Assembly: GCA_050230475.1 (NCBI GenBank)
Contig: JBFLGF010000062.1
Location: 1-64,000, forward strand
Origin: Ancylonema sp.
Taxonomy: Eukaryota
DNA length: 64,000 bases
Direction of reading: 5' to 3'
Shown here: positions 19,218-54,956 of the stretch, in pieces
Numbering within the stretch: the first letter of the stretch is position 1
Layout: every line of letters begins with the position of its first letter
Program-made: the position numbers and the translations under genes
The notes under the pieces: generated by a model
What the model was told of the DNA's origin: nothing
Database searches by the model: none
What the model saw: the letters and a program-made list of their open reading frames with translations, nothing else

Positions 19218-20379
19218 TAGATACGATATTTTGAGTTAATATTCTTTTGTCCAATTTTGAAGGTTTTTGGGAACGTGGGAAGATGGAGAGGGGGAGAGAG
19301 AGAGAGAGATGGGCGTGGCTTGACGCAGAAGCCTACAATTTTGAGTGAATATGTGATAGGGAGAATTGGAGAAGAAGATAGAGATCGTTTTTGTGGTACA
19401 AAATGTGACTTCCGTACATCAATTTTGTAGGAGATGGCGCGCGTAGCGACGCCAACGATTTTGCAACTGTAGCTCATCACAAAGTTGGCGAGAACAACTT
19501 GTTGTTTTATTATATATCATATGGGAGATTATTGTGTAGAAAGTATATTAGTTTGGAGAGATTGGGGAAGGTACGCACCCCATAGTATGCGGGTTGAAAA
19601 CATAGGTAAACCACTTGTATGCCAATCAAGGCAGCTACTACTTTATGCAAGTTGACATTGTGTTGGTCTTTCGTTTTCGTGTTAAGAAAATGATGGTATT
19701 TTGTTCCCACACTTCGGTTTTTCCTTTCACAACGTGGATGATATTGGTGTTGCATCCATAATCTAAGGTTGGGTATGGAACAACCATGAGTCACAAACGG
19801 TCGTGTTTCACAATGACCCGTCGGATTTGTGACCCGCCGGTCACAAATCCCGATTTGCTCACTAGATTGTAATCGCACATGGCTATACTTGCGGCTGATG
19901 GGAAGGATATGGATGAAATGGGGTAAGATCCCACGATGGTGCTCAAATTTGAGCACTTCAAGATGGAACATCTGAAGAATCAAAAACTTCTTGCTTAGTG
20001 TCAAACTCTCTAGCTAGAGTAGGGGATGAATAATGTAACACGCTCTCTTCTTGTGCTCATTCCGTTTCATAGGTTGATCCCGCAAAACCATGTCCGAAAC
20101 CGCAATCGGACATTCCGCAAATTCCCGGGACATTCCGAGGCCAACAAAGTGGTATCGGGGGGAAGGTAAACAAAATACTAAGATACAGCATTGTAGGGGT
20201 TTCCATGGCATGATATGTGCTACAAATATGCACAGAAACATGTTTATGATGTTATAAAATATATATATTGAACGATAAACTTCAAAACGATATGTTCGTA
20301 TCGCCACACATAATGACCCGGGTTTTTTAAAAGGAATTAATGCAGTTAATGAACCACCATTTGAAAAGATTGTCAGCAA

Positions 20380-20776
20380 CAACTGTCAATATGGCATACC
20401 AAACGGACGCACATACTAATATGAAAGACATGATTCGACCCTAAGTTATATGAAAGAAACTTTGAATATTAGTTTGCACCCGTAACTTTCATCACTTGCA
20501 TCGACGTTATTTTGTAATTTGTTATTACGATATATTTTTCTCGATTTCCGTACATCGTTATTCGCGAGAAACAACGTTCTATATAGTATAAAGAGATTCA
20601 TTACTAATAATGTTAATAATGTTATTAATAATGTTAATAATTTGGCTTTGTAATGAGTGTCGTTATGCATATATCGAGGGCCATTTTGTATTGATTTTAA
20701 ACAAGTTCAAAAGTACTGTCCTTAAATCGAGGTTGTTCTAATAAAGACGGTCCTTATATCGAGGGAGCACTTTATA
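20380..20776 (-). mobile_element. pogo/Tigger-like non-autonomous DNA transposon fragment
   Basis: The minus-strand end AGTGCTCCCTCGATATAAGGAC and internal sequence match 55267-55640 (TACAGTGCTCCCTCGATATAAGGAC...AACGTTGTTTCTCGC...GGGTCGAATCATGTC). Confidence 0.6.
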
Positions 20777-22166: not shown

Positions 22167-22577
22167 TGTACAGCGACAGTTGGAGTCTTGCCGCTTTCCC
22201 GATATTACGGGGGGTCGGTACGCAGCCAGTAGACAATTGGGCGGCGGCGGTTGGATGACGGTTGGAGGTGGCAGACAGTTGGCACCATGCCAGCCGCTGA
22301 GATTCTGGCGGTCGGGATCCACCCTACTCCCTGTACAGTCAGCGCAGCAGTAGACATGACGTGCTGGCCTAGCTTTTGACTCGACGCCATGGTGCCTACT
22401 TAATTACGTCCCAACCGATTCATTGCGCTTCTAAAAATCTGCGAGTATTGGCTTTTGCCGCGCCGTCAAACTTAGTTGTAGAGGCTGTACAGTATAGAAA
22501 GTCATTCGACTGCACATTGCTAATTCCGTGAGTCGCTGTTTTATACTGCCTATATTCACCCGGAAGTTGGTGAAGCC

Positions 22578-25500
22578 ATGGAATGCCTATGCCAGACGCA
22601 ATTACGGTTAGGAACAGTAATTCAAAACTCGACTCCAAAATGTTATGAAGATGGAAAACCACAAACGCAGAAGTTCCAGGGCCCGGCGTTCGTGGGGCTC
22701 AGCCGCCACATCTCTATTTCGCAGCTCTCTCGCACTTCGCGTGTGCCCCTGTCCTCAGAGGCCCGAAGAGGTAGAAGTGGTAGGTTTTCTGCGCGTGTCA
22801 GTGCATCTGCATCATCCGCTGGACTCCCTTCACTCAACGACCTGCCCCTTGTAACGTACATCAACAACCAGGGTCGCATTAGTCCACCCATAGAGGTGGG
22901 AACTCAGGCTTCCGTCCTTGCCGTGTTTGACGCCAACAAGAAGATTCAGTACATTGGATTTTCAAAGGATGTACGGAATTCGTTGCGAACACTCATGGGC
23001 CGCAGGGCGGAGCTGTGTTACTTCTACTAAATCCATAACCTCAAGGAGCTGGACCAGAAGGCGATGGTGGACATCCGGAAACACGTAAGCAGAAGAAAGC
23101 CAGCCACCGGATGGCGTCTGGTCTTCTCCACAGCGTGCCCACTCGATATTACAAAAGGAATGGAATGAGTGCGAGGTTTCACAGGAAATGAGCACAAGAG
23201 GCTATTTGTCGGAATTCAGCTCCGTTATCCCGCACACTATCCACGTCAACACTCCGTCGTCTCTAGACCTGCTTTCTAAACCTCGTTTCTTTTTTCCCAA
23301 CCCCAACTCCACCCTGCCCACCCTCCTCAGTGGTTTTCCGAGCTGGGCCTCCCGCCAGCTGGCAACACGGAGGCTTACCAGAGGGACCAATGGGAGAAGC
23401 CCGTCGACGCGGGCTCCATCTCCGAGAGAGGGAAAGTGGCCGCTGCATCCTCCAAGGCCAAAACCATGCTGCAAATCATGAAGGACAGGGGCCTCAAGGA
23501 AGAGGTGAAGGGGCTGGATTCTTCTACGGGTGGGGGTCTCTCACATAAAATGAATCTGAGGGGTGGTGCATATAGGCAGTCAGGGGCTGTATGGAGTCGA
23601 CAGAGTGGTTTGACTATGGGCTGGTTCAGGTCCAGGGTTCATGGTAAGGTTAAGGTTACAGGCTGATCCTAGGCGCGAATTATGTGCGGAACGAAGTCCA
23701 GTTTTTCTCGGGGTTAAGAGAGGTTTCTCAGTGGGGACCAGAAAAGAAATGATTTGGTGAAGTGAGGCGCGAGGCTTGAGGTTTTAGGACTGGCGGGGGG
23801 GTAGGAGAGTCGCTGAGTCAGCAAAGTACAATTCTGACTCGGCCCGGGGGTCATCCTGTATGCTTCAGTGTGGAGGGAATTTGAGTGGCTGAGATTCCGC
23901 CACGTGTACGGTGTGGATGTGCGCAGATGGTGTATGACCCCGCCCTCATCGAAAAAGGGAAATGTGACGTGCTACCGGTAATACGCTCGAAATCTTTCTC
24001 TGAAGCGCAATATGTTTTTTTTTTTCGTGGCATTTTTTTCCTTCTTCTTCTGGTACATGTGTTTGGTGGGATTCTCATACATTTGCGAGTCGTTTGAATA
24101 ACGTTGTGTTGTTTACCTTCTAGGCTTTTGTTACGAAGAACTGGGTTTCATGGTCTCACTGTGAACAGTCCTCCCCGTCTCAACTTGCAAAACTAAAAAA
24201 AAACTAGAAAAAAAAAAAAAAAAACACATCCTTTTTAAACCGCATTCCAGCTCTCATCCACCAATTCCGTACACGCACTAAAACCTCCAATATATTTTCC
24301 ACACTTCATATAGCACCGCATCTCTTACCCCCCCCCTTCCTGTTCCCTCCCCCAGTCCAAGGGTCTGACCGAAGCTGAGCTGGCAAGCGCTGACGCGTTG
24401 AACCGAGCAGCCGCCTCCGAGATGCGCCACGTGTCCCTCTCTGCGCCCTCTGGGGAGAGTATTGAGTTTGACATTCTGTTCCAAAACAAGATTGTGACTA
24501 ACGGGGGGTGGATGTTCGACCTCAAAATCGCGAAAGACGATAAGGAGACGAGGTAAGGAAACAAAAAACCGGGAACCCGAAACCCGAAACCCGAAACCTG
24601 AAACCTAAAACCCGAAACCCGAAACCCGAAACCCGAAACCCGAAACCCGAAACCCGAGACCCGAAACCTGAAAACCCAAAGCTGAAACCCGAACCTGAAA
24701 TGTATGGGAATCCAATATCTCATACCTAAAACCCGAAGACTGTAACCTGACGCTTGAAACCTAAAACCTCAAACCTGACACGCGAAGCCGGAACCTGAAC
24801 CCCGAGCATGAACCTGAACCTGAGACCTTGGAAGATCCCAGAGGTCGAATTGGAAGCAGGAGCTGCGAATGGGGAAGAAATTGAGGGCATGAAATGAGAT
24901 GGTGTCTGTCTCCTTGTGTGTTGTGTTTAGGCACCGTGTGGTGTGCTCAAGAACGTATCCGGAAGCAACGGGGCTCACAGAAGAGGAGATGATTGAAAGG
25001 ACGTTTGCGTTTCTGCTGGTAAGACAGGGGGGTTAGAGGACGATCTAAGGGTTTTTTTCCTATATTTGTGATCATTTGTATATTTATAGACATACATCAT
25101 TTAGATAATATCCCGCTTTATATGTATTTTCCTTCATGGAAATCTTTACCTTCATTGTTCTGTTATCATTTTGTTATATTATATTCACCTCATTATTATT
25201 ATGATCATTCTCATCATTATTATGGTGACAAAAATATTTCTACATAATATCTTTCCGGGTTTTTTAATTTATAGGATGTAGTTTGTACAACAAATGTCCA
25301 ACAGATTCGTTTGTAGTACCGAGATCCAATGTACGAATTCCTATTTTCCTTGTTTTCCCCCCTTGTCATGATAATATTTAATAGACAGGTTCCCAGACTA
25401 CTCAAAGCATTGTCATGAGAACATTACGCTCGGAATGATTCTTTTTGGGGGGTGTAAAAAAAGGAAAGAAAAATATTTATGTTTAAAATAATAATAAAAA

Positions 25501-38699: not shown

Positions 38700-40330
38700 G
38701 TATTTGATTGCACGGCGGTATGCCCGGTCTTTTTGCTGTTGGTTTGGAGTTGGTATGTATTGATGTGTTTTGAGTAATGTCATGGTAGCATTTCCATCCC
38801 AAATGTCAACTTTGAGGTCGTTAGGTAGTGGTGTATCTTGGTGGTGGCTGAGGTAGTATGATGGTGATACTTGAAGAGTTGGAGATGTCTCGAAGTAATA
38901 ACATGGTGTTTTCTCCCCCAGTGTCTCAATCTCATGGTTGTCTGTAGTGATTTCGGGTAGTGGACATCGGCTACATCCATCCGCGTTGGAGTTGGCTATG
39001 CCAGGGCGATGAAGAGTGCCCAGAGTGCCAATTTACCCGTAAGTTTTGTAGTAGTCATTATCCATTTGAGTGGGGCATGGTCGGTGATCAAGATAAATGG
39101 TTTTCCAAACAAAAATTGTCTGAAATGTTGTGCTCCCAAATGACTGCAAGACACTCGCCATGGAAACTACCGTAGTTTTTCTCTGCGTTGTTGCACCTGC
39201 GGCTGGCGAATGCGACTGCATATTCTTGTCCTTCTTTGTCAACTTGACTGAGTACCGCACCTAATCCATGAGCACTCCAATGTGTAGCCAGAATGTATGG
39301 TAAGTTGGTATCAGGTCGTCTAAGGACAGGTTCATAACAGAGCTTGGTTTTTAGTTCTTTGAATGCAGTATCTTGAGAGTCGCCCCACTGCCATTTGACA
39401 TCACCTTTGAGAAGCTCATTGAGTGGTAAAGCAATTTTGGAGAAATGTGGTACAAATTTTCGGTAGTAGGTAAATAGTCCCAGAGCTGCCCGTAGTTGGT
39501 GAATATCCTTGGGTGCAGGCATATCCTAGATTGCTCGGGTTTTCTCATCTTGTGGTGCAATGCCTTTACCGGAGATCTTATGCCCTAAGAAATCCATTTC
39601 ATCTGCGAAAAATAAACATTTTCGTGGACGACATTTGAGTTTGAATTGTCGCAGGCGATGAAACACTTGACGTAGATGTTGAATGTGGTATTCGTGCCGC
39701 TCCAGTTACTGATGTCATCAAGATAGCACCGTGAGTTGCAAAGACCAGCTAGGATGCGATCCATAGTGCGTTAGAAGAATGGAGGTGCGTTTTTCAATCC
39801 ATATGGTACGACATTCCATTCATATAGTTGGCGGTCTGCTCCCCAAAATGCAGTTTTACATTTTTTTTCCTCAGCGATTGGTATTTGGTGATATCCTTGC
39901 CGGAGATCCAGTTTGGTAAAGATCTAAGCATCCTTCATATTGAGAAAAATGTCCTCGATGCGTGGTAATGTTTGATTGTTGATAGGGCGGTAATCTCCAC
40001 ATTGACGATAGTCTGTGTAGTTGCCTTCTTCATCCTTTTTGCGAACAACGACTGTGGCGGAAGCGTAATGGTTGCTATCGCTTTTTCGGATCATTCCAAG
40101 TTCCATAAGTTTTTGACAATTTCCGCGTACAAATCCCCATTCCGCCTATTTCAGACAGGCGGTGTGAGTTTTGGAAATTTGGTTGTGTAGTTTGGAGTGG
40201 TATTTCCACAAGTTTATTGCTAGAAGGTAGTAGTTTTTCTAAAGAAAATGCGAAAACATCTTTGTTTTCCTTGAGTAGTTCAATGACTTGTAGCTTTTGT
40301 TCCTTTGTCAAGTTGTTTCCTATTTTCCAG
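38700..40330 (-). pseudogene. Ty3/gypsy reverse transcriptase-RNase H of element A, with stops, frameshifts and deletions
   Basis: YRQCGDYRPIN, LPRIEDIF, TKLDLRQGYHQI, KTAFWG, PYGLKNAP, CYLDDI, FLGH, ALGLFTYYRKFVPHFS, GLGAVLSQ, AFASR, EKNY, ITDH, NADGCSR. Confidence 0.92.
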
Positions 40331-40614
40331 GTAATAGGTTCAGCTTCTGTGGTAGGATTGTTGTCGTGTGGTTATGGAATGACATTGCCATATGTAACCG
40401 TTGTAGATTGGTAACTTGTCTCAAACAATAGTGCCAGAGTCATGGAGATAGCATCGTTCCGAAGTTGTGGTTCGTTGTCTGGTACAATATGTGAATGGTC
40501 ATGGTTTGGGTAAAATGTAGAGGTGTGGTTATCATAGTGGAGTGTATGATAAGCTTGTGGTATTTGGTATTTCCCACCCCCCCTATCATTGGTTGAGAGG
40601 GTGGGGTCCGATTC

Positions 40615-42039
40615 CTATATGAGGTTATATGATGGTATCGCATGAGTTGCCACTATCATGCCCCTTAACCATTTTTCCATGTTGCGATCCATAGTGATGC
40701 CCAAAATAACTTTGCGTTGGTCTTCTCTGATGCCTGGTGCACATGTGTCACCGTTTTCAAACCCCATGAGTCTCTTCCGTTCCCATAAGTTTGCTTCTTC
40801 CCAACGCTGTGTGTCGACGTTGTAAAGCATGCCTGGTCCTGGTTCTTTCCAACGTTGAAAAGTGAACTGGTAGCTGTCTGGGTAAGACACCAGAGTAGGT
40901 CGTGCACGGCGAGGTCGTCCAGCTTTGTTGACTGATGTAAATGGTGGTTGGTCATCGGTCAAGACTTTGTTGGGTCTATGGTGTGGTTCCAAAATTTTGT
41001 GAAGAGGTAGTAGGTTGGGTTCATCTGGTATAGCGAGTTCCAGAATGTTTGGTGCTAGCAAGTTGGTCCATAAACAGCGGACTCTGTGTGCCGTGCTACC
41101 AAAGCTGCATGCATCGACCACTGCTGGAAAGCCTAGAAAAGACTTGATGAGAGTAGTGGTATCCTTGACTTCTTTGATGAGGTCACCGAATGGGTATGTG
41201 TTTTCAAGTACGAATACTGGTGGAATTTTTTGTACTTTAATCAGATGGTTGAGGTAGCGAATCAAGTGGAAAAAGAAAGGAAATATACGGTCGTAATATC
41301 CTTTGCCTTGTCCTACCTTGCTGATCATCTGGCATTCCCATCCTGCGAATATGAAGTCTATTGGTCCTCGTTGTGCAATGAGTCTGTCCAAATCGTCGTT
41401 GGAAATTTTTGAAATGTCATGATCGAGACGTGTGTCAAACCCTTTGATTGCACTCGTGGGTAGTAGTCCGGGATAACGAGTTTGTATCTTTGGTAAGAAA
41501 GCTCTGGTTATATCTTGAGCATCTTCATCGATATCTGTGTTGGTGTAAGTGCCAATCTTCTTGCCTTGTTCGACAGTCATTATGGCGTCCCTGCAACTCA
41601 TGCCTCCAAATGGTTCCCAAACATGTAGTCCATTTTGCAGTGCTTTGGGGTCAAAACGTGCGGTGTAATCCGGTGTTATAGGAACCGCATCACGAATCGG
41701 TATACCTTTCCATTCAGTCCATGGTGGTAATGGTGATGTTCTGGCTTTGTCTATGGCATTGCGCAAATATGAAGCATTGGTAATGCGCAAAGTGTTGAGG
41801 CGGTTGGTTGCATGGTGTTCGTTAACTTGGTTCAGACATTTCGCAACCATGTTCAATTGTGGTCGACTGGCTTGACGAATATTTGTATGTTTGGTGGTGG
41901 CGAGATAGACCATGGTATTGGCTTCCCATTCTTGCAAGTTTGGTTCATATGGTTGTTCTTGAGATGCATCAGATGAGTATTCTGGTTCAGAGTACAAACC
42001 ATTGCTGGCAATGTTGAATTCAAATGCGGTGAGTACATC
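40615..42039 (-). CDS. C5-cytosine DNA methyltransferase domain within the element A polyprotein (between protease and RT)
   Basis: Motif I VWEPFGG, HDISKI (III), motif IV IFAGWECQ (catalytic Cys), motif VI FVLENT, motif VIII AHRVRCLWTN, IX ERKRLMGF, X ILGITMD; open over about 470 codons. Confidence 0.9.
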   Translation of the reverse strand, partial: DVLTAFEFNIASNGLYSEPEYSSDASQEQPYEPNLQEWEANTMVYLATTKHTNIRQASRPQLNMVAKCLNQVNEHHATNRLNTLRITNASYLRNAIDKARTSPLPPWTEWKGIPIRDAVPITPDYTARFDPKALQNGLHVWEPFGGMSCRDAIMTVEQGKKIGTYTNTDIDEDAQDITRAFLPKIQTRYPGLLPTSAIKGFDTRLDHDISKISNDDLDRLIAQRGPIDFIFAGWECQMISKVGQGKGYYDRIFPFFFHLIRYLNHLIKVQKIPPVFVLENTYPFGDLIKEVKDTTTLIKSFLGFPAVVDACSFGSTAHRVRCLWTNLLAPNILELAIPDEPNLLPLHKILEPHHRPNKVLTDDQPPFTSVNKAGRPRRARPTLVSYPDSYQFTFQRWKEPGPGMLYNVDTQRWEEANLWERKRLMGFENGDTCAPGIREDQRKVILGITMDRNMEKWLRGMIVATHAIPSYNLI

Positions 42040-43699
42040 TGTCATGACGCTAGAGATAGCTAAGGCGAAACCCCTCTAGATTGATCAAGAACCCCTCTAG
42101 ATTAATACTCTGCTATAGCGAGAGTATTGCATATAACGATTTTCTAGAACTAGTACTTTACAAGAAAAATAGTGAAGTATGAAATTCGTACGACTCGAAA
42201 ATAACGTGTGGCGTATTTTCCGAAGTCTAGAATCCAGCAGTCTTCAACAAATAGGTGCGTGTCGATTTTGTTAAAATCGCAAGTCTCTTTAGACTTGTCG
42301 ATAATCCCGGCGATTAAATCCAACCGTAGAACTAGAGGAATATCTCGCGCCGCTTTCATCGGAGCGCCGAGATTAATTGTAATTTTCTAGAAGCCAGCCT
42401 CTCGCTATCTTCGACAGTTTAACTCTAGTTAACTCTGCCGGTTAGCACCGCGCAACAGCTTTGTGATATAAGTCAAATTGTACTTTCAGATCTGGCAGCT
42501 TCCGCTGTCAGATTGTGTTGTTAAGAAGTCCCTTCCAACAATATTTTTGTGTTATCTGAATCCTTTGCAATTCTGTGAACATTGCATCCCTTCGTTTACG
42601 CGACTACGCAACGTGCTCGTCTTCCGACTCAGCCTGACATCCGACAGCCAGTCGGTAAGATTGCAAATCATTCGTTGCAATCTGTGTGTGTGTGTATTTG
42701 ATCTGATTCATCTAAATCTGTTGCTGACGCTCTTTCTAAGCCAGATTGTTAATCGACTGTAACTTCTTACATCGATTCGCTGACGCTCTGTCTGAGCCAG
42801 CAAGCGTGTGTGTGTGTTAAACATCTGTCGATTTGCTCGCGTTCGCTCCGAAGCGGAAATTTCATTTGTGTGTGTGTGTTTGTTGTCGCTCGCTCCGAGC
42901 CAGCATCTGTTGTTTACACCTGTCTGCTGACGCTCTTTCTGAGCCAGCATCTTTTATCGACGCGCCGTCGATACTTTGCTTTCGCACCGAAAGTAACTCT
43001 TACGGCTGTTAACCTTGATAGTCTGCTCCAGACTACCAGACTATCTTGTTTGCTTTATAGTATTTTCACACTATAAACCATCTGTTAGGCCCTCGGCGTT
43101 ACGTAGTGAATTTCACCAGACCGCTGAGACGTGTGATAGATATGATATTGATATCTCAGCAGAGACTCAATCTGCAGTACTACTTACTTCAATCCGACCG
43201 CGGAAGACCTTGAATTATCAACAATTTAAAGTCTGAAAAGGTAAATTGCCTTAAAAAAAAATTGTTTTTTTTTGGCAACTTTTCTTCTACTATTTTGTAT
43301 TCGATGTGCTCGCAAGAGTAGTGCATGCAGTGGTCACGAGATAGTAGAGGGAGATTAACCAAACTGGAGATAACTAAATCTGCTGAAATTATCGATCGAC
43401 CAGCTGCACCAGCTATCGACAAAAACTGTCCACGATCACCGGACATTGATATAATTAATATCGAATCATCAGCTGCACCAGTTGTTGATACTTATATTCA
43501 TACTGATATTGACAATTCAGCTGCACCAACTGTCAATATCTCGGCATTCCATCTGCCTAGTACCCTTCTCGATAACGATTCTACAACCCAAATATAATTA
43601 ATATTTGAACCCAACAAATTGACATGTTCTACATCTGAACCAGAACAATCTTTGGAACGCCTACCTACAGGCTCCATTAACTTGAAACTTGTTTTGATT

Positions 43700-46694
43700 A
43701 TTGACACAGACGACCACATCGTCGACACCACAACATCTGTGGCTGGACCATCGACCACTGTTCTCACTACAACGCCACCAAGCGCTGCAACAACATCCAT
43801 TTATCGACACAAGATAGATAAAAGGTGGGACAGACTCTACCATGGCCAACCCAACGCCACTACCGACATATACTAGAGAAACTGGTGTCAAACAAGATGA
43901 GTTCATCGATAGTTTGAGACAGTTAGACCGAACCCAACAACGCGCACAGCGTATGGGGCATGTACAGTGGGACTGAGTACTTGCAGCAGGTCAGTATATG
44001 AAAGGAGAAGCTCATCGAGAATGGCAACAGTTTGTACGTGACAACCGTGGTACTACTACTACGGAAGATATTCGAGATATGTACCGTGAGCATAATTCCA
44101 ATGTCGCATATTATCGTCTGCAAGGTAGACAGGATGGACAACATGCACCGATCAAACCCACATTATCGGCAGCAAAACCAACATAACTGGACTTGTTCAT
44201 CACTACCATCAAAAATCGTTTTCGAACTTCAGCTGCAGAATTTGTCACTTAGATCGAAACATTTTCAGCACGACCCAACGACTGTGTTGCAACCACATTT
44301 GCACGCTCTTTAACGACCCAACAACAATTGTTCAAGAGGCAGGAGCCATGACAGAAGAACAACTGGCTAGGAGGTATATACCACATATTCCTCTACCACT
44401 ACAGTCTTATATCGACGACTGGCATTTTCGAGAATCAGAGGAAGGGTACTACAAGAATCCACCGGATCCTCCTATTACCAAGAAGGAAATTATGGAGAAA
44501 GCTAACAAGGCTGAATTACTACGTATGAAACAAGACGCGGAGAACCGCGCAACCGGGATCACCAGATCTCCTAAACTACCTTCATACACTCCATGTACTC
44601 CATACAATGCTCCTAAACCAACAGGCGTATTGACACCACGACAGGATAACAGCATGGAATGCTATAAGTGTCATCAGACCGGACACCTTTCGCGTGACTG
44701 TCCTGCACCAAGGAAACAAAACAACTTTCAGTCATCAGGTTACCAATCTGATAAAATTTCCAAAACCAACCAATCCTCAGGATCATAGTTTAAGGGAGGT
44801 GCGTACCGTACTGAAAACATACAAACTTTCAAACCACGACCTCGCCAGTTTGATGCAAAACAGTACACCGCTGATGCATTCTGTGAATACTGCAAAGGTA
44901 AACACCACACCCGAGACCAATGTCAGAAACTTGCCAAGGTACAGAACTTCCTAACTCTCAATACACCACCCAGTGCAGATACCCAACCCAAACAAATCGT
45001 GGAAGACTCTGAATCCTGAGACGCAGACAAGTTACCTGGCTATGCAAGTAGACGACTTGGCACGCCAACGAGAATTCGAAAACATGTCGCACCAAACAAC
45101 GGACTCTGAGATCGCAGAAAAGGCACATGACAACGCGGTTGCACTTGTCAGCTCCATGCAAGAACCTGCAGCCCAATACACTACCAATCAGGATTTCACC
45201 ACTACTTCACCACGCAACTCTCAGGACACCAAATATGCTATCCAACATAAGGAGAAGAAAGCCACAGCAGACCAATCTGCGAGAGACAGTGAATCTGCAC
45301 GTGTCGGCCCACGCCGTTCCATTCAATTCGGCTCCCAACCTGAGGAGGCCGTCTTGCTTACTTTACCACCGGTCAAAGCGGTAGCAGGTGATTATGAGGA
45401 TAAATATCCCCTTACACCTGGCTCCACGCGCATTGACCCTCCACCTGAGTTCACAACGGACTATGGGGAAATACAAGAAACTGCGGATACACCTCACCAA
45501 TCAGTAGTACGCAAACGATTGGAAATCGAGGACAAAATCAAGCGCAAATGCATTCCTGAGGCACTTGAACAAGCAAAGTTTATAGATTTCAACCAACCCA
45601 TCTCACCTCGCAGCACTGTGTGTCAAACATTCTTTCGCGCTGCTGAGTTTGAAGATGCACATACTCCTATGGAATTGGATACCTCAACAATTATATCCTT
45701 AGACATTTCAACCAAACCTATATCACCTCAACATTCGCTACCTACTTCTGACACTCAATTCCTTTCAAACATTCTTTTTGATACAGACCTTTCTCGGGCT
45801 GACAACGACACCTTCGAACCAAATGAGCTACACGAGCTCACTAAGGACGACTTTCGAAACCGATACCACGCTATGATCTCGCAACAGAAAATTTCTCGAG
45901 CAGTCGTCTTCAAAGCAGCCAAAATAAAGGCAGAGGTAACGATTACACGAAGAATATCATAACTCATCAACGAACAAAAATCGGTGCTTCTCTGCAAGGA
46001 TGTGCAAGCAGATGTCGACATCGCCGCAGCTCGGGAGGAGGAAAAGAGCAAATGGATTCAGCAGTATGATCTTCTAGTGGATACACTCCATTCCAAATTG
46101 GAAGACAAGATGCAGGACCTAGTCGTTCTTCACGCAACGTAACTCCAAGAAGTTCGCTAGGAAGCTGCTCGTCTGGAACAGAGGCTACAAATGGAGATTG
46201 GCAAGAACGTACTGCGCGGCGAACATTCAGCACCAATTCCCAATTCCCCACTTACCAGCTGTGCACCCTCCACATCCATTAGTTCTGCACCTTCTCCTGC
46301 TGCCAGCACCCCTACCCAACCAGGGGGTGATACCATGGACACCTCGGAGGCCATAAAACCTCCTACAACTGCTGCGTGCAAACGGGAGGCGTATTCCACT
46401 CACCCCATTTTGATGGATAGTCGGCGGTCTACACCTACAACTCCCAACTCTTCATCCCAATTACCCAATGCACAAGACCCGGGACAATCCATTGTCAAGG
46501 CGATGGAGAAGGAAGCTGTGAAGAACAAACCACTCGGTGCCTACGCACACCTGCGCGACCCAAGAGACAAAACCGACGTTGCTCAACGTCTGGCACGCAC
46601 GAATACCAATGTGTCAGATTTTACCTTCCGTCAACCATTCATTCGACCGGCTATGGCTGTTAGGACCCTCGCTACAATCACTAGGGCTCCCTAG
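43700..46694 (+). pseudogene. gag-like ORF of element B plus a long uncharacterised extension, interrupted by stops
   Basis: CCHC knuckle CYKCHQTGHLSRDC (~44660), a second knuckle FCEYCKGKHHTRDQC (~44880), then consecutive ORF fragments 44973-45962 and 46191-46694. Confidence 0.75.
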
Positions 46695-47110
46695 CGAGGT
46701 CCCCACACTTAGCGCTAGAGCGCTACTAGCTCAGTTTTCCCAATAGCGAGTTCTGTCCCTATAGAGTGGGAGTTGTGTCCCTAGCGGCCGCCTGGCCCCT
46801 AGAGAGTATTCTGGTGTGTCCTTCGCTACGGCAGTAGTGCCGTTAGCCAGACTTGATGTGTCCTTATCATATTAGTGTGAGTTATCCCACTTGTAGTCAT
46901 GGTTCAGACTTCAGCCAGTTCCTATATCTAGTCGAGATAGGAATGCCTTTAGAGCATTCCTATCAACTCTTTTGCACTCCCGATTATTATCACCACCATT
47001 TCCCATCGGTCATACAATCTCATTCATTCGGCATTTCGCCATCTTTCCGCTTGGTGCATATCGCAACTTGCTTGCTAGGGACGCCTTTTGCATCCGTCCC
47101 TAACATAACA

Positions 47111-48442
47111 ATGGCGCATCTCCTCAGCATGGGCGCCATCCCGAAGGCTTTCTCCGGAGCAGACCGCAGCAAATTAGCAGATTCCATCTACGCGCCAGAC
47201 ATCCTGCATTACGGAGACGCCCGAGAACATCAGGCGAAATGACCAAAATTGTCTTCGTGAGGCACACCTCAAGTTGGCACATGACTATCAACCAATCCCA
47301 CCATCTATCAAATGGTGTGGTCCTACATTTTAAGGTGCATATGAACTACCTCGTACCATCATTTCCACGCAACCAGCTTCTGAGGCTCGTGGCCTGCACA
47401 TCTACATCCCCTTCGGCAACTTGGAGATTGTGGAGATATGTCTGGAGGGAGGCTCCATTGTTTCCAACGTCACGCCGCAGACGGACTGCATCCACACCAA
47501 AAACCGCTACCTTCAAAAGCTGCGACAACTTCAACTCCGATTTCCAGACCAGCTGCCGAACTCTGCGATCGAGCACTGTGATGAAATTCTGTCTACCAGC
47601 GTCACCGACACGACAACATAGTAGATGGACGCACTTTTCCGTCAAAAAGGCCCCTTCGACGTAGTCGGTGGTAACTATCACACAGAGGTGGATCGCACCT
47701 ACAACCCTCTACGTGGCGGTCAAGACCATCGCCTCGCTCCACTCCTCGTTGTCATCAAATGGATGCACTACAGCGCGCGACTCGCACAATTCTACCCGGT
47801 GCACATTTTCTACACCCACATCGGCACACCCGAGTACCCTCCTTGGGTGGACGCCCTGTACCACGTGGCGCGTGCATTCCTTGGCAACGCTGCAAATCTC
47901 CAACCACTCCAGTTCCAAGGCCACGTACATCGCCCAACCCAGGTGTGGACCAACTGCATCACACCACGCGAGCTGGAACTTGCGCAACCCCACAAGATAT
48001 GGCAGACCCGGGAGCCTCTGCAGAACCTTCTGCAACCGGGGCACACAGCTCAGATCTTGACACTTCCCGACCCGGTGAACCATCACCGCATGGGCAACCG
48101 CTTGGCTATTTTTCCCACTCTGAGTCCTTACCTCCGGACAACCAACTATACGTTGCGCTCGGATGGACGACCCGGCATCGGTATGCTGTTCGATGCACCA
48201 TCTCAGTAGTACGTGCCACCTTCTCCATTCGAGATCGAGCAAGCTCTTGGACGACCTGTGGGATACACAGCACATGGCCGCATCACCGACGCCATGCGCG
48301 CTGCTCATCTGGGCCACATGATGGACGGACGACTCATCATGTTCCTGGAGGAAATCCTCCAGGGCACCAAACCATAGGAATCACCCCTCACCTCGGAACA
48401 CAGGTATTTACCACCCTCGACTCTGGGGGGGAGGGACACTAG
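47111..48442 (+). pseudogene. divergent, catalytically dead DNMT-like ORF of element B
   Basis: Colinear with the element A DNMT: GLHIYIPFGN/GLHVWEPFGG, RFPDQLPNSAI/RYPGLLPTSAI, QKGPFDVVGG/QRGPIDFIFAG, AFLG...HRPTQVWTN/SFLG...HRVRCLWTN, RPGIGMLFD/EPGPGMLYN, LGHMMD/LGITMD; a few stops. Confidence 0.8.
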
Positions 48443-49260
48443 ATCCTCTGGTCAACAATTTTCAACCAATCCTGTCAAACCACACGGACGGAACAAATCC
48501 AAATCCAAAGTCCAAAGTCAAAACCAAACTACGGGCACACCCACTACAGTCAAAAGTCAACAAAAAAATATAGGACCTAACATGGTATCGAAACCCGGTC
48601 CACGACCACGGTCCTCAAATTCAGCTAAACCAACCGAATTAAGGCCTAACAACTCAACGGTCAAACTTGATCTTTCTGGTCCACGACATTCTCGTCTCCG
48701 GTCCGTACCTAGTCAACAAAGTAACACTCGGAATCAGTCTACAACCATCCCGGACCTACCAAACATCACTTGGATATCAAACAAACCAAGACGACAATCT
48801 CAACCAACATCTCATGCTGCCTCTTACCACACGAGGAAACACCATAAAAAACAGCATGAAGATTTTTTTGTCATCAACCACACTTTTCAATACCAACCAT
48901 CGGAACCTACTTCAGTACCACCTGTACAACTACATTTTTCTTTATCACCATATTCTACCTCGCGATCCACACTCTCGGATTCTCTCAGCATACCCGATAG
49001 TCTACCCGACTTGCTAGAAGTACCATCTTTTCCTGATTATGAACATACCGTTTATACATATTTGGATGATTCTAACATTCCTACCTATACTCAGGGATGT
49101 ACACTTGACCGTGATGCATTGTTCGCATTATTAAGCACAAGGTGACCTACCACTGCTGATCATCCCAGTTCTGCAACTCAACCACGGCATACTTTTGTCA
49201 CATTCTTATACAATCTCGTCTGCTGCTGTTTCCCAGCTCCTTCACAAGCGTTCCACACCT

Positions 49261-49272
49261 GGGGGGGGGGAG
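49261..49272 (+). promoter_or_regulatory. polypurine tract of element B
   Basis: GGGGGGGGGGAG immediately before the TG of repeat B1. Confidence 0.8.
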
Positions 49273-50988
49273 TGAGAGCAGCCGGACCACCGAGTCCACC
49301 TGAGACCCTTCGATCACCTACAAACATCATCTATACCAACCCAGTCGACATCATCACTACACCACCGCGTGCATTACCACATGCATCATTATGAGAAACA
49401 TCCGGGAACAAAGGGAACAAAGTATGAAGAATATAATTTCGGGCGGCCGACTCCAAACAACACGTCACCTGTCATGACGCTAGAGATCGCTACGGCGAAA
49501 CCCCTCTAGATTGATCACGAACCCTTCTGGATTACTACTCTGCTATAACGATAGTATTGCATATAACGATTTTCTAGAACTAGTACTTTACAAGAAAAAT
49601 AGTGAAGTATGAAATTTGTACGACTCGAAAATAACGCGTGGCGTATTTTCCGAAGTCTAGAATCCAACAGTCTTCAACAAATAGCTGCGTGTCAATTTTG
49701 TTAAAATCACAAGTCTCTTTCGACTTGTCGATAATCCCGGCGATTAAATCCACGTAGAACTAGAGGAAATATCTCGCGCCGTTGTCATCGGAGCGCCGAG
49801 ATTAATTGTAATGTTCTAGAAGCCAGCCTGTCGCTATCTTCGGCAGTTTAACTCTAGTTAACTCTGCCGGTTAGCACCGCGCAACAACTTTGTGATAAAA
49901 GACAATTTGTACTTTCAGATCTGCCAGCTTCAGCTGTCAGATTGCGCTGTTAAGAAATCCCTTCCAACAATCTTATGTGTTATCTGAATCCTTGCAATTC
50001 TGTGAATATTGCATCCCTTCGCTTACGCGACTTCGCAACGTCTCGTTTCCGTCTCCTGACATCCGTCAGTAGCCAGACGGTAAGTTTGCAAATCATTATT
50101 TGCAATCTGTGTGTGTGTGTATTTGATCTGATTCATTTGAATGTGTTGCTGACGCTCTTTTTAAGCCAGCTTGTTAATCGACTGTAATATCTTACATCGA
50201 TTCGCTGACTCTCTCTCTCTAAGCCAACAAGCGTGCGTGTGTGTGTAAAGCATCTGTCGATTTGCCCGCGTTCGCTCCGAACCGGCAATTTCATTTGTGT
50301 GTGTGTGTGTGTTTGATGTCGCTCGCTCCGAGCCAGCATTTGTTGTTAACACCTGTCTGTTGACGCTCTTTATGAGCCAACATCTTTTATCGACGCGCCA
50401 TCGATACTTTGCTTTCGCACCGAAAGTAACTCTTACGGATGCTAACCTTGATAGTCTGTACCAGACTATCTTGATTTCTTCATAGTGTTTTCACAGACTT
50501 TTGTACTATAAACCATATGTTAGCTCGCCTTCGGCGTTAAGTAGTGAATTTCACCAGACCGCTGAGACGTGTGATAAATATAATATTGATATCTCACCAC
50601 AGACTCAATCTGCAATACTACTTAGTGAGAGCAGCCGGACCACCAAGTCCACCTGAGACCCTTCGATCACCTACGAACATCATCGATATCAACCCAGTCG
50701 ATATCATCACTACACCACCGCGTGCACTACCACATGCATCATTATGAGAAACATCCGGGAACAAATGGAACAAAGTATGAAGAATATAATTCCGGGCGGC
50801 CGACTCCAAACAACACGTCACATCATCGTCCTCAGAAGAATGTCATAAAGCAAGATTGGGTTCCTGCATGAAAGTATCTACTGAAGTATATGTCACTCTT
50901 GTCGTCATGTATTGACATTAAATACTTGCAGCATGTGGTATACTGTATCAAACTGGTATCGATTCTTTCTTGTGTCCTCCGAGATCCC

Positions 50989-52421
50989 TGTCATGCCGCT
51001 AGAGATCGTTAGAAAGCAAAGTCTTTTTAATTGTCGATCCGCTTGAAAAATAGCAATTTTGGTAATTGTCGATTTTTAGTCGTTATGTTAGTCGTTATAT
51101 TGAACTCTGTCGTTATATGAGTTTCAATCAGTCAGACGTTTGATTTGATAAAAAATTTATACTCAGTCAATCTAGAAAAATCGATGTACCACTTTTTAGA
51201 TTTTAATTCGGAGTATTCGAGTTAGTAGATTCCCAGTGCGCGAGCTTTATTTCAGTCAGCCAGCCTGGCGTTTGAACCGCCGCACGTGTTAAATCTATAA
51301 CTCTAGACTAGACAGTCACGATTGGTTGTCTACTCCGATATTTTTTTTCAACCATAGATCAAGATAAGGATCTAGATTACCGCGCGTGTGAAACGGCGCG
51401 TCGATTGTACTAAAGCCTAAGTCGCTTTCTAAACTGCCAGCTTCCGCTGTCAGTTTACGCTGTTTGAATCACAACAACTCTTTGCAATCGCCATCTTTGC
51501 AATCTTTGTGAATTCGTGTATTCTGCAATCGTCAACAATCGTTATCAAGTGTGCCGTTTCGCCATTGATACTTTGTCTCTGATTTTTGCAAACTTCGCGT
51601 CGCTCCATCCAGCCGTAAGTTCTGCGAAATTGCCTGTTTGCTTGTGCGTCGCATCTCAAGTAGTACAAAAATTCGTGTGCCGTTTTGCATACGCATCGTG
51701 TGAAATTCTGCCGCAGTCATAATTATCGTTACCCTTGCAAAATTTTGACCCTTGCAAGTCGTTGATTGTCAGCCGTTTCGCTGACTTCAGAAATCGTTAC
51801 AATTAGCTGCACCGTTTCGTGCGAGCTCAGTCAAACAATTCACCCTTTGAATTGCCTGCACCCGTTCCAGATCTAGTGAATCGTTTTATTCACGACAACG
51901 TTTGATTCCCGAAACCAATAGTGAGTGCGCACCCCGTCGCAACTAACTATCATTCATTATGCACCCTTGTATAAATTCTATAGCTATTTGCCTTGCGTTC
52001 TTTTTAATCGTAGCTGTCACCTGTTGTGAAGTACGATAACCTGCAACGCTTGATTAACCATAGTGTTTTTTATAGAATTCCCACCACTAAGCGTTGAGTG
52101 CATCTCAGATTTCGGCGAGTAGTAGCTACGGCAAACTTCGTTGATAAGTCATATACCGTGCTTGAATTACATTCTTGTGTGGTCAGTAGGGATTCAACCT
52201 ACACCAAACTACTCTAGTGAGATCCAGATGATGACCGTAGGCCCAATCCTGAATCTCCTCATCCAGACACGCAGCCAAGTCATCAACCAACAACCGTCAC
52301 TTTCATCGACGCAGAAAAATATAGAAAGTCAAGTTTTGCAGATTTTTCCAAAATCTGTCGATATCTTTATTTTTGAGAGATTTCGTCGACAGGTTGTCTG
52401 CCGACTCCATCTCGCACGTCA
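50989..52421 (+). mobile_element. element C: solo A+B terminal repeat of a related family; TSD TCCC
   Basis: TGTCATGCCGCTAGAGAT...GCACGTCA with TCCC on both sides; internal A/B junction ACTACTCT-AGTGAGA (~52217). Removing it restores the host frame RVDW-DLGGHKK. Confidence 0.88.
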
Positions 52422-53700
52422 TCCCAGTCCACCCGGTAATGAAATTCTTGAATCCAAGGGTCAGTGATTCCTCCGATGGGTGCGAAGAATGTGGTGCCAA
52501 GAAGTACGTCGAATTTGTCAGATGGTGAGAGATGTTGTTTGGTCTGTACATAAGTCTGGTTATGTCCTTCTCCGATTGTAATAGTACATTTCTTTTTGGT
52601 TGTGCCCAATGATTGATGACTTTTGCCTTTAGAAATAATATATTCAATGCCTTGTTCCAAGTCAGTTGATGTGAGACCCAATTGTTTGGTAAACCTGGAC
52701 CCAATCATGACATTCTTTGCTCCTAAATCATAGATGAGAATTGTTGGTGGTTCCCCTCCAATGGTGATGATCCCTTTAGAATTGTCAGTTTTTGGTACAT
52801 GCCAATTGGTTGCCAGTCGTGCGTCACATGGTATTACTCGTGGTTTGTTGGTTTGTGGTCCTGCAACAGATAGAGCAGGGTTTGGGTTTGGCATAGGTGC
52901 CTGTGGTGGATATGTATGAGGTGGTGGTACATCCCCATGTGGTGAATCCAGTAGTAAATTTCTGCGATGAGGACAATTTGACATAGTGTGTCCTTTTTGT
53001 CCACAAAAAAAACATTGTACCTCTCGCATGGTAGTATCATAATGGTGGTTGTGGTCCTGGTCCCGATAGTCGTATTCTGGTAGTGTCGTACTTCTTGTTG
53101 GAAGAAGTTCACATTCTGTCTCGTGGTCTGAAGTTCTTCTGACCTCGTTGTTGTTGTGAGGCGTAGCAGTCCAATTGAGTGATGTAGATGTGCTCATTCG
53201 CTCGATGATTGTTTGCACCACTCGTTCTAGCTGGGTGTCAAAAATGTGGATGGCGAGGTCTGGTGTAGTTTCGTCCATTGGCATCGCTGAGTAGGAGACT
53301 GCGTTGATTTCAGCAGTAGCGGTGTCGATGATGTCGTTGATGTTTCGTGTAACCATGTTGTCTTTCCATTGTTGCTCATCTGTGTGTAGCTGTACTGCGA
53401 GATGATTTGGAAACACTTGCTCCCATTCCTGTAGTCGATACTTGCATTAAATTTGAACATGGTCCATGATTGTTTCCTGTACCTTTGGTGCAAAGGCTTG
53501 GATGACCGTAGTGTGGGTCTCAATCTGTTCCGCTATCTGTCCAAGTCTGAAGTATCGGAAGTCGGAACTGATGTTGGTTGCTTTCTCACTCATGTCTTTC
53601 TATTAGTATATATCATTGAGTTTGGATTCTGCTACCGAAGCTTGTTGTTGAAGAAGTGTATTACTCGTTGCTTGGTTGACAGCACTGATCATTGAAGAAA
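52422..53700 (-). pseudogene. gag (zinc knuckle)-aspartic protease region of element A
   Basis: ORF 52367-53416: CFFCGQKGHTMSNC, ILIYDLGAKNVMIG, FDVLLGTTF. Confidence 0.85.
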
Positions 53701-53781
53701 CTGGTAAAATAAAAAATGGTCAAATTCTGGTAATAAAATGACTTTCTGCGATAAAAAGTCTTCCGCTGGTGTGATTGAAGT

Positions 53782-54956
53782 TGGGTTGCAAAAAGAGTCT
53801 CTGCTGAGAATTAGGTGTTCCGCTAGTTCTATCACACTTTCTCGTGCGTGAATGTGTGGAACACTACTTGACGCCGAGGGCGAGTCGACAATTACTATCA
53901 ACAATAGAAAGTCTAGACAGGATGATTGATGGTAAACAGAATATTCTGGTGTCGAATATTAGGGTCGACAACCGAAAGGTAAACTTCCGAGTAGAAAGTT
54001 CGGCTGTCAAACGGTGCGGTGAGAGATGATAATTGATGGATGTGATGTGCTGGTTCAGTTAGAACGTCAGCAAGTGGTTGCGCGTCGTTATCGTACTAAC
54101 TCAGTACGAGCGTAAGTGAATCGACGTAAATCGACAAGAGTAGTTCTCGCTCAGTAAGAGCGTCAGCAACGTGGTATATGATTATGGCTGGCTCCGTAAG
54201 AGCGTCAGCACAAAGATGTGATGGTAAACAACAAGTTTACACGCTGGCTCAGTGAGAGCGTCAGCGAAACAACACAAGTAATGACAGGAAGTTGAAGTTG
54301 CGAAGGTCACTTCGGTCAACTTACAGAATTCGTCGACGGTAGTCGCACGAGAAATCGTAGACAAGACACGAAGATAAGGGCAAGAACTAGCGTCAGCCAC
54401 GAGTTGCAAAATTCAGATAACATAATTGACAAGATTTCTGAGAAAATATCTTGAAAGTTTCTTGACGGCGCAATCTGACAGCGGAAGCTGGCGGATCTGT
54501 ACAATGAAAAATGTATGTATGCTACGATCGTCAAATCGTAAAACTAACTAGAGTTAATCGACATGGTTAATCGACAGGCTATACTCTAGAAAGTTCTATT
54601 TAATCTTGGCGCTACAAATATAGACGTCAAGTATTCTACGGCTGGATTTTATCGCCGAGATAATATCGACAAGTCAGAAAATATCATCGTCGATAACAAA
54701 ATTGCGCAGAGCGCTGAAAAGTCGACACGCACTCTTAATTGTACGACTCCTGGATATTACAGTCGGAAAATTTGCCACGCGTTATTTTCGAGTTTACAAA
54801 AAGTTGTTAGATTTTGCGGAGTACTGATTCTAACTTCACACCAAATCATGAAATCGCTATATCGAATCTGTTTGCTTATAACAAGGTATTTTACTAGAAA
54901 GGACTGGATATTATTACAAAGGGATTTTACCCTTAACAATCTCTAGCGTCATGACA
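53782..54956 (-). repeat. 5' terminal repeat (A part only) of element A
   Basis: Shares the start TGTCATGACGCTAGAGAT, GCCAGCTTCCGCTGTCAGATTG, GCTGACGCTCT motifs and the end CTCAGCAGAGACTC...ACTTCAATC with A1 of element B. Confidence 0.85.

Follow-up and report, generated by a model that had tools for sequence, protein, structure and literature searches.

A DNMT3-like methyltransferase domain within a dead Ty3/gypsy copy of Ancylonema sp., and the Glu-Cys motif IV of its family

On the minus strand of a 64,000-nucleotide stretch of Ancylonema sp. DNA (contig JBFLGF010000062.1, positions 1 to 64,000; hereafter the window), a stop-to-stop frame of 486 amino acids (40615..42075) stands open in the midst of broken retrotransposon genes. 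This locus raises the question of what the frame encodes, how it came to be open in such surroundings, and what an enzyme of this type would do for a retrotransposon. The original prediction was that of a C5 cytosine methyltransferase (DNMT), with all core motifs and a variant catalytic loop, carried between the protease (PR) and the reverse transcriptase (RT) of a gypsy-type element. Read from the 5' end of the minus-strand element downwards, the locus is composed of the following features.

53776..54956, minus strand: 5' terminal repeat A' of the DNMT-carrying element, whose minus-strand start at 54956 is TGTCATGACGCTAGAGAT
52426..53446, minus strand: open gag-protease frame, with a zinc knuckle at ~52970-53017 and an aspartic protease at ~52436-52834
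50989..52421, plus strand: nested insertion 2, a high-copy solo unit of 1,433 bp, 'A-B'-like, with ends TGTCATG...ACGTCA and the TSD TCCC (50985-50988, 52422-52425)
50825..50988, minus strand: 55-codon polyprotein piece between the two insertions, with 3 in-frame stops, read through after excision
42040..50820, plus strand: nested insertion 1, an oppositely oriented element of 8.8 kb, with the TSD CATC (42036-42039, 50821-50824)
41698..42039, minus strand: conserved subfamily-specific N-terminal region before the methyltransferase fold, matched by the fragments P0002, P0003, P0198 and P0199 at 55-91% identity
40618..41697, minus strand: putative DNMT3-like C5 cytosine methyltransferase domain (PF00145, DNMT3B sequence match, AF2, Foldseek)
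40372..40617, minus strand: stop at 40615-40617 and an in-frame linker of 80 codons, closed by a stop at 40372-40374
39008..40371, minus strand: reverse transcriptase and RNase H, disrupted by at least 3 frameshifts (Pfam and tblastn to P0162)

The native portion of the open frame spans 40618-42039 (474 codons) and then meets the stop at 40615-40617, which together make up precisely the stretch marked in the original prediction; the first 12 residues of the 486 belong to the end of a nested element. The predicted core motifs were all located on the minus strand: motif I FGG at 41602-41610, motif IV GWECQ at 41329-41343 with its Cys codon at 41332-41334, motif VI ENT at 41197-41205 and motif VIII HRVR at 41077-41088. 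The Pfam search that had been proposed as a check gave a match to PF00145 of 25.5 bits (E 1.1e-5), above the curated gathering score of 22, which covers the profile in part (residues 216-337 against profile positions 41-159 of 324). Among solved structures, the best sequence matches were DNMT3B, DNMT3C and DNMT3A (E 4e-5 to 1e-3), which also made up 22 of the 22 sequence matches with E<0.01, and the motif IV Cys of the window aligned with the catalytic Cys of DNMT3B. Structure pointed the same way: the AF2 model of the domain reached a pLDDT of 91.6 and a pTM of 0.89, and Foldseek gave 186 matches at E<=1e-3, the best of those listed all being DNMT3 (DNMT3C, 3A and 3B; E 3e-16 to 1e-12, target TM 0.75-0.80), in the form of DNA-bound DNMT3 catalytic domains. 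The mammalian enzymes, although they are the best matches in sequence and structure and align at motifs I, IV (Cys), VI and VIII, are only 17-20% identical to the window domain; DNMT3B has GSPCN where the window has GWECQ, and the window domain, unlike mammalian DNMT3, has no PWWP or ADD and sits in a retrotransposon polyprotein. A bacterial methylase or contamination was rejected, given the weak sequence match to HhaI (E 0.085 versus 4e-5 for DNMT3B) and the retroviral-type domains with which the DNMT is in frame. These sequence and model data support the reading of the 40615-42039 frame as a putative DNMT3-like C5 methyltransferase that a retrotransposon encodes between its protease and its RT.

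The element that carries it extends from the 5' repeat at 54956 down to ~39008. Repeat A', which begins with TG, was delimited by a block of high-copy depth (53776-54945) and by the joint 50820<->54956, and it shares its terminus and collinear blocks of similarity with repeat A of the nested element. In the gag-protease frame the Pfam zf-CCHC match was just above its cut-off (21.4 versus 20.8 bits) and that of Asp_protease_2 under its gathering score (21.4 versus 24.3 bits), with tblastn against the protease regions of P0043 and P0036 giving E values of 5e-8 to 6e-9. Downstream of the DNMT, which shares its frame with the linker and the RT start, these two segments are collinear with residues 1129-1214 of the metagenomic relative P0162; Pfam detected RVT_1 (under its cut-off), RT_RNaseH and RT_RNaseH_2 in 39008-40371, and a tblastn search with P0162 residues 1129-1600 placed the RT-RNase H pieces in frames 0, 2, 0 and 1. 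Integrase was not found in the window copy, P0162 residues 1601-2138 giving no tblastn match. PR, RT and RNase H thus stand in gypsy order in the window copy, with integrase present only in relatives (P0162, P0092); the 3' part of the element is lost, and of its terminal repeats only the 5' A' survives.

That the DNMT belongs to the gag-PR frame once the insertions are removed, as had been predicted, was borne out. Insertion 1 has the layout A-coding-B-A-B (A 42040-43186, B 49271-49468, A 49470-50624, B 50625-50820), with A/A and B/B 90% and 96% identical, and diverse flanks were found ahead of 42040 in 65 contigs. It encodes a gag zinc knuckle (zf-CCHC, 44639-44785) and carries a decayed DNMT-like stretch of its own (47202-48368; tblastn E 3.6e-26), which contains 4 stops and no longer has ENV or the Cys of motif IV. 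Insertion 2 was recognised from a step in depth, from varied flanking sequence at both 50989 and 52421 and from head-to-tail contig joints 52421->50988. Both nested elements have TGTCATG...ACGTCA ends and exact 4-bp TSDs. When 42040-50820 was excised with one copy of CATC and 50989-52421 with one copy of TCCC, a single frame of 869 codons was restored from gag to the DNMT end, with 3 internal stops that all fall inside the 55-codon piece 50825-50988. In P0198, a relative with 91% identity that reads across the first junction without a break, this piece directly adjoins the N-terminal region of the DNMT. These results show that two younger elements, of related families, entered the polyprotein frame between protease and DNMT. 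The idea that 50822-52369 forms a long PR-DNMT linker was discarded, as it has stops in all frames and consists mostly of another high-copy unit, flanked by a TSD of its own. The split repeats had suggested a DIRS element; this was also rejected, given the 4-bp TSDs and the relatives with an rve integrase; no tyrosine recombinase was found among the 126 + 122 ORFs scanned.

The same arrangement occurs in intact relatives. Searches yielded 803 cluster representatives at E<=1e-3, and the family is multi-copy and highly repeated in the source organism, where 23,114 contigs of sequencing run X1 cover the window region 38900-43300 at 80% identity or more. P0162 holds zf-CCHC, DNMT, RVT_1, RNaseH and IN within one ORF of 2,138 aa and is collinear with the window from the DNMT through RNase H, and the order gag-PR-DNMT-RT-RH-IN recurs in the Closterium proteins P0043 and P0092. 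The predicted position between protease and RT is therefore real and not peculiar to the window. The Closterium polyproteins GJP34393.1 (NIES-68) and CAI7886383.1 (NIES-54), together with P0162, have the domain order of the window with an integrase added, and DNMTs 33-37% identical to it, and all three are collinear with the window; their ORFs are intact or longer, whereas insertions and frameshifts break up the window copy, which has no integrase. The Closterium records are labelled only 'hypothetical' or 'unnamed protein product'. In a midpoint-rooted DNMT tree of the retrotransposon family alone (127 rows), the six named proteins looked up on the side of the window were all from Closterium, and a larger algal clade (104 of the 127 rows) has the order RT-RH-DNMT-IN-PHD and includes no PR-DNMT-RT member. 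The 'pol' of Scenedesmus sp. PABB004 (KAF8056149.1) is of this second type: its DNMT is homologous (~30-36% identity) and shares the invariant residues and the alternation of Glu and Pro in motif IV, but lies between RNase H and integrase, with a C-terminal PHD finger, in a separate clade. The two Pol architectures track two DNMT clades, the PR-DNMT-RT placement probably belonging to zygnematophyte-type elements and RNaseH-DNMT-IN-PHD to the much larger clade. Two further searches with P0001 were negative: a scan of metagenome contigs gave 52 pattern matches and no confirmed relatives, and in a search for longer homologous proteins 0 of 2,586 candidates scored.

Could DNMT, RT and gag-PR stand side by side only through an assembly chimera of separate repeats, or could the frame be open for the reason that it is still in use? 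High-copy repeats make up the region, and assemblers often misjoin such sequences; on the other hand, the exact TSDs at both insertions, the precise excision that restores one frame, the bridging of the first junction by P0198 and the recurrence of the same order in independent proteins from other assemblies (P0162 and Closterium P0043 and P0092) leave a chimera with a negligible chance. Selection on the frame, as an exapted or still-expressed stand-alone methyltransferase, is somewhat less far-fetched and still very improbable. The original prediction had noted that the DNMT stayed open while linker and RT accumulated stops, and the damage was indeed found, with in-frame stops at 40615-40617 and 40372-40374 and at least 3 frameshifts in RT-RNase H; the nested element's TGTCAT end, reverse complemented, even supplies an in-frame ATG (MTDVLTAF...) as a possible start. 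The hint of preservation, however, was not upheld. In simulations that ignored indels, the probability of finding no stop in 474 codons was 0.07 at 5% divergence and 0.18 at 3%, so that the openness beside broken segments is only mildly unlikely by chance and not clearly beyond chance expectation; a 0.07 event is moreover unremarkable because the frame was chosen as the longest open one in the 64 kb. The gag-PR frame (340 codons) is also open, though the 55-codon piece has 3 stops, a clustering that is unexplained. Among the 40 best-supported private differences, out of 737 listed for 38900-43300, 17 lie in the DNMT frame, and these comprise 12 nonsynonymous and 5 synonymous changes, a neutral proportion. 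They also fall at positions conserved in the family (e.g. G163D and A254V, conserved in at least 80% of the 122 relatives), and these two changes are absent from relatives at 70-91% identity; the Gly after FGG in motif I, present in 83% of the 122 relatives and in the close ones, is Asp in the window copy. G163D, which lies in motif I (AdoMet binding), and other such private replacements are predicted to impair the enzyme of this copy. The private substitutions look neutral; with gag-PR cut off, RT frameshifted and integrase gone, the window copy is by its sequence dead, twice-interrupted and non-functional, and its DNMT frame would have remained open by chance.

What an intact member of the family would do is best approached from its conserved residues. 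To our knowledge, a Pro before the catalytic Cys is near-universal across C5 methyltransferases; the window copy lacks this Pro-Cys dipeptide and has Glu instead. The EC of the predicted variant loop was thus confirmed, but it is no peculiarity of this copy, since Glu is the majority residue of the family: among 122 relatives the residue before the Cys is E in 72, P in 39, S in 4, D in 4, Q in 1 and C in 1. The catalytic Cys itself, the Glu of ENV and R331 are invariant (122/122), and R333 (120/122) and the Asn of ENV (118/122) nearly so. Glu-Cys occurs on both sides of the family tree, including in the Closterium proteins P0043 and P0092 (P0162 being outside the motif IV tally), and E and P alternate inside clades, which suggests that the two states may be interchangeable. 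A literature search on a Glu-Cys motif IV gave nothing relevant, weak evidence that it is unpublished. The replacement could alter or abolish activity on DNA. In the Dnmt2 homologue Pmt1 of S. pombe (PSCQ), the residue before the catalytic Cys is also replaced and catalysis is kept, although there by Ser rather than Glu and in a stand-alone tRNA methyltransferase with no relation to transposons (PMC3526270).

We therefore favour, with a probability of about 0.78, the reading that the frame is the DNMT3-like domain of a dead, 3'-truncated Ty3/gypsy copy, and that intact relatives would likely methylate their own reverse-transcribed DNA. The conserved catalytic residues suggest that intact family members would be active enzymes, made as part of Gag-Pol, and that the enzyme would act on new cDNA within the particle or the pre-integration complex; the RNA of the element would be an alternative substrate. 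A doubtful alternative is that the domain does not methylate cDNA, being either directed at RNA (as Dnmt2) or a non-catalytic binder of nucleic acid or chromatin, with Glu-for-Pro as its signature. The prevalence of Glu on both tree sides would fit this, as would the behaviour of KnitGypsy-Dnmt3 from Klebsormidium nitens, for which no DNA methylation was detected in yeast in what is given as the sole published assay of a gypsy DNMT3; the authors called that assay inconclusive, human DNMT3B having failed too (PMC5890265). The invariant Cys, ENV Glu and RxR, however, favour catalysis over mere binding, the best structural matches are bound to DNA, and the retention of Pro-Cys in 39 relatives, in alternation with Glu, speaks for interchangeable states. 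It is likewise tentative, and to us rather unlikely, that a DNMT3-like enzyme was captured or re-placed at two positions in Pol (PR-DNMT-RT and RNaseH-DNMT-IN-PHD) and mostly then acquired Glu-Cys as a mark of changed chemistry or substrate. If this were true, RNA:DNA hybrid or single-stranded cDNA in the particle would be candidate substrates, and the apparent inactivity of the gypsy DNMT3 tested on yeast chromatin would be explained.

The type of element is already known. DNMT-bearing gypsy elements have been published for streptophytes, among them the charophytes that the original prediction named (de Mendoza et al. 2018, PMC5890265), and the window element is a further member of this Gypsy-DNMT3 type. 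By its description, KnitGypsy-Dnmt3 likewise has an intronless DNMT3-like domain within Ty3/gypsy Pol in a streptophyte alga, and the A-coding-B-A-B repeats given for it in the legend to Fig. 4c are exactly the layout, compared by that legend, of the nested plus-strand element (PMC5890265). The paper reports few copies in K. nitens, in contrast to the highly repeated window family in the source runs (PMC5890265), and the named relatives of the window family are from Closterium, which belongs to another charophyte class than K. nitens; no K. nitens sequence was among the named relatives looked up, and nothing relevant on Closterium retrotransposon DNMTs was among the literature matches listed (12 of 452). 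SymbioDIRS-Dnmt3 of Symbiodinium also carries a DNMT3-type domain in a retroelement Pol, and its domains were reported to perform de novo CG methylation in yeast, but it is a DIRS element with a tyrosine recombinase, whereas the window relatives have a DDE integrase and the insertions 4-bp TSDs (PMC5890265).

The locus by itself is of little import, being a decayed copy from a type of element already in the literature. The wider family is large and repeated, with two architectures, and mostly has Glu-Cys while keeping the other catalytic residues. It thereby offers a testable handle on two questions left by the 2018 yeast assay (PMC5890265), namely the activity of retrotransposon DNMTs and their substrate.

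The minus-strand frame between protease and reverse transcriptase (RT) in the window, translated from stop to stop as the 486-aa protein P0001, matches the Pfam family DNA_methylase (PF00145) over residues 216-337 with 25.5 bits (E 1.1e-5), above the gathering score of 22 bits, and motifs I (FGG), IV (GWECQ), VI (ENT) and VIII (HRVR) could all be placed by window coordinates. Among solved structures, the sequence search placed DNMT3B, 3C and 3A closest, each by its catalytic domain (E 4e-5 to 1.4e-3), followed by M.HhaI (E 0.085); GWECQ aligns with the DNMT3B catalytic loop GSPCN, and HRVRCLWTN with AHRARYFWGN. Residues 127-486 were modelled with AlphaFold2 on an alignment of 36 relatives; the model is confident (mean pLDDT 91.6, pTM 0.89), and its top Foldseek matches in the PDB were DNMT3C, 3A and 3B (E from 2.8e-16 downward in rank, TM on target 0.75-0.80; 186 matches at E<=1e-3). 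The long open DNMT domain with core motifs proposed from the sequence is thus corroborated: the Pfam search and the structural match, set beforehand as tests, were both positive, and the cysteine of motif IV is present. The domain lies in an element interrupted by two insertions, laid out as follows.

52370-53446, minus: gag-protease frame with zf-CCHC and aspartic protease
50989-52421, plus: second nested insertion, 1,433 bp
49470-50624, plus: second copy of repeat A of the nested 8.8-kb element, 90% identical to the first
198 bp before and again after the second A copy, plus: repeat B, the two 96% identical
47202-48368, plus: DNMT-like stretch of the nested 8.8-kb element, in one frame with 4 stops and without the motif IV Cys and ENV
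44639-44785, plus: gag zinc knuckle of the nested 8.8-kb element
42040-43186, plus: first copy of repeat A, 1.15 kb, into which the DNMT frame runs upstream
40615..42075, minus: P0001, stop to stop
40615-40617, minus: stop codon 3' of the DNMT frame, same frame
80 codons, minus, DNMT frame: linker between the two stops, followed by the RT start
40372-40374, minus: second stop, 3' of the linker, DNMT frame

The A-coding-B-A-B layout marks an 8.8-kb plus-strand element nested inside the DNMT-bearing one, bordered by a CATC/CATC duplication, and the sequence before 42040 varies from contig to contig (65 contigs of sequencing run X1, agreement 0.34). This layout is common to KnitGypsy-Dnmt3, the DNMT3-bearing gypsy element of Klebsormidium nitens, for which it is given in the Fig. 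4c legend of de Mendoza et al. 2018 (PMC5890265). The 1.55 kb between the 8.8-kb element and the gag-protease frame carry stops in every frame, and 50989-52421 forms a unit of its own, whose summed depth in source-run contigs is about tenfold higher, with diverse flanks at either end and contig joints running head-to-tail from 52421 to 50988. It begins TGTCATG, finishes ACGTCA and is bordered by TCCC/TCCC; starting like repeat A and ending like repeat B, it is taken for a solo A-B unit belonging to a related family. The end-to-start joints are read as tandem or circular forms of this unit elsewhere in the genome.

Excision of both insertions with one copy of each duplication leaves a single frame of 869 codons spanning gag, protease and the whole DNMT; its three internal stops all fall within the 55 codons between the insertions. 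The independent protein fragment P0198, which shares 91% identity with the window, is continuous over the first junction. The predicted sharing of one frame by gag-protease and DNMT therefore holds, as does the predicted decay of the adjoining linker and RT: beyond the stops at either end of the linker, RT and RNase H reach ~39008 on the minus strand in frames 0, 2, 0, 1, and so with at least three frameshifts. The 5' repeat of this element starts at 54956 (minus), with the same 18-nt terminus as both nested elements. Since the integrase part of the metagenomic polyprotein P0162 (residues 1601-2138) has no match anywhere in the 64-kb window, the copy is 3'-truncated. A near-identical 18-26-nt 5' terminus, TGTCATG[A/C]CGCTAGAGAT..., recurs at 42040, 49470 and 50989 (plus) and 54956 (minus), and the end ...ACGTCA is also common to three otherwise diverged element families of the window; the common terminus is presumably a conserved integrase recognition end.

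The nested 8.8-kb element (42040-50820) showed no detectable protease, RT, RNase H or integrase and leaves just ~0.9 kb between its DNMT-like stretch and repeat B; possibly this element is a derivative that is non-autonomous or has lost internal sequence. Its repeat A has 20-30x the summed depth of the coding part of the DNMT-bearing element. The reverse complement of its TGTCAT terminus gives the DNMT an in-frame ATG (MTDVLTAF..., 42010-42045, minus), and with it a putative chimeric 476-codon ATG-initiated ORF.

With P0001 as query, phmmer on 1.84 billion cluster representatives retrieved 803 proteins at E<=1e-3, of which 423 reach <=1e-10 and 81 reach <=1e-30. Nine of the first 12 matches scanned with Pfam were polyproteins with RVT_1, RT_RNaseH, Integrase and PHD (PF00145 itself reported in six of the nine), with the DNMT between RNase H and integrase, a domain order that differs from that of the window. 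The window's order was found in three proteins of a second batch (n=29): P0036 (zf-CCHC, DNMT, RVT_1), P0043 (zf-CCHC, Asp protease, DNMT) and P0092 (DNMT, RVT_1, RNaseH, rve). The entire domain series stands in a single 2,138-aa ORF in P0162, which clusters with P0036, and all four are collinear with the window's minus strand. With architectures labelled by local phmmer, the starred branch of a FastTree phylogeny of 127 DNMT domains separates 104 rows (80 RH-DNMT-IN, 24 DNMT only) from 23 (14 PR-DNMT-RT, 8 unknown and the window's plus-strand copy), which shows clustering by architecture rather than the number of captures, since the tree is midpoint-rooted with no outgroup and SH-like support only, and the plus-strand copy sits on a very long branch (3.06). 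All six named proteins looked up on the PR-DNMT-RT side come from Closterium strains; the two named proteins on the other side belong to the same cluster and are 'pol' of Scenedesmus sp. PABB004. Judged by its Closterium relatives only, the locus probably stems from an alga of zygnematophyte type. Words of 40615-42018 also occur in two metagenome runs (shares 0.08 and 0.04), one labelled glacier metagenome, and contigs of both match this region at 80-99% identity, which suggests that relatives of the family exist in environmental samples.

The original prediction treated GWECQ as a variant catalytic loop. The Glu-Cys pair is there, but it is no oddity of this copy: across an alignment of 122 near-full-length DNMT domains the position preceding the catalytic Cys holds Glu 72 times, Pro 39 times, Ser and Asp 4 times each, and Gln and Cys once each, and Glu and Pro alternate on either side of the tree (10 and 7 of 19; 62 and 32 of 103), making Glu-Cys the family norm. 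The catalytic Cys, the Glu of ENV and R331 are invariant (122/122), with N292 kept in 118 and R333 in 120. No description of a Glu-Cys motif IV was found in the literature searched, Supplementary Fig. 13a of the 2018 paper not included. In S. pombe Pmt1, described as active on tRNA with PSCQ for PPCQ (PMC3526270), the same position is replaced, by Ser where this family mostly has Glu, so the residue before the Cys can vary without loss of catalysis.

In intact relatives the DNMT3-fold domain is translated within Gag-Pol, placed between protease and RT, and its catalytic residues are conserved across a large, old family. The domain is probably an active methyltransferase that would methylate the element's cDNA during or just after reverse transcription, as the discussion of de Mendoza et al. 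argues for Pol-embedded DNMTs (PMC5890265). In the yeast assay as recounted there, DIRS DNMT3s produced de novo CG methylation; KnitGypsy-Dnmt3 produced none, a result its authors call inconclusive, and for this reason the idea that the domain acts on an RNA substrate or has a non-catalytic role stays live, unlikely as we consider it.

The family is highly repeated in the source runs: 23,114 X1 contigs align to 38900-43300 at >=80% identity (2,978 at >=99%, 7,541 at 95-99%, 9,389 at 90-95% and 3,206 below 90%), with summed depth alike in DNMT and RT bins. Among the best-supported 40 of 737 sites, 17 lie in the DNMT frame, and at these the window departs from almost every contig; 12 of these differences are nonsynonymous and 5 synonymous, about the neutral proportion. 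G163D, A254V, R264I, D270H and C274Y occur in the window but in none of the compared fragments of 70-91% identity; G163, the last Gly of motif I, is conserved in 83% of the 122 relatives and A254 in 98%. The two A copies of the nested element differ by 10%, so the DNMT-bearing copy has been disrupted at least that long, roughly 5% per lineage. A simulation at 5% divergence gave P = 0.07 for zero stops in 474 codons, indels ignored. The DNMT has indeed stayed open while linker and RT decayed, as predicted, but at this P the open frame is mildly unusual and not evidence of selection. Stops concentrate in the short linker pieces, gag-protease (340 codons) and DNMT being clean, a clustering that is unexplained.

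Across the window, CpG observed/expected is 1.26 in 42040-43186 and 1.38 in 50989-52421, both terminal repeat units, 0.62-0.77 in the gag-protease, DNMT and RT-RNase H segments, and 0.88 overall. Three collinear inverted matches (540, 204 and 181 bp, 79-84% identity) join 22556-23961 to 31333-29989, pointing to another related repeat pair in opposite orientation ~6 kb apart. Two further inverted pairs (80-83% identity) link 20366-20774 with 55640-55266 and 3105-3353 with 38241-37991; the last segment lies just past the 3' truncation of the DNMT element, and this repeat may belong to whatever took the place of its integrase.

That the capture itself was already known is confirmed by later papers, which name 'streptophytes (Gypsy-DNMT3)' among TE-borne DNMTs (PMC12344493; bioRxiv 10.64898/2026.05.21.726589, in the lists concerned), and the locus thus belongs to a known kind: it is a dead, previously undescribed member of Gypsy-DNMT3. 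What may go beyond the print found bears on the family and not on this locus: Glu-Cys in most members, two positions within Pol that go with two DNMT clades, and a nested element that has kept gag and a decayed DNMT but shows no RT or integrase.
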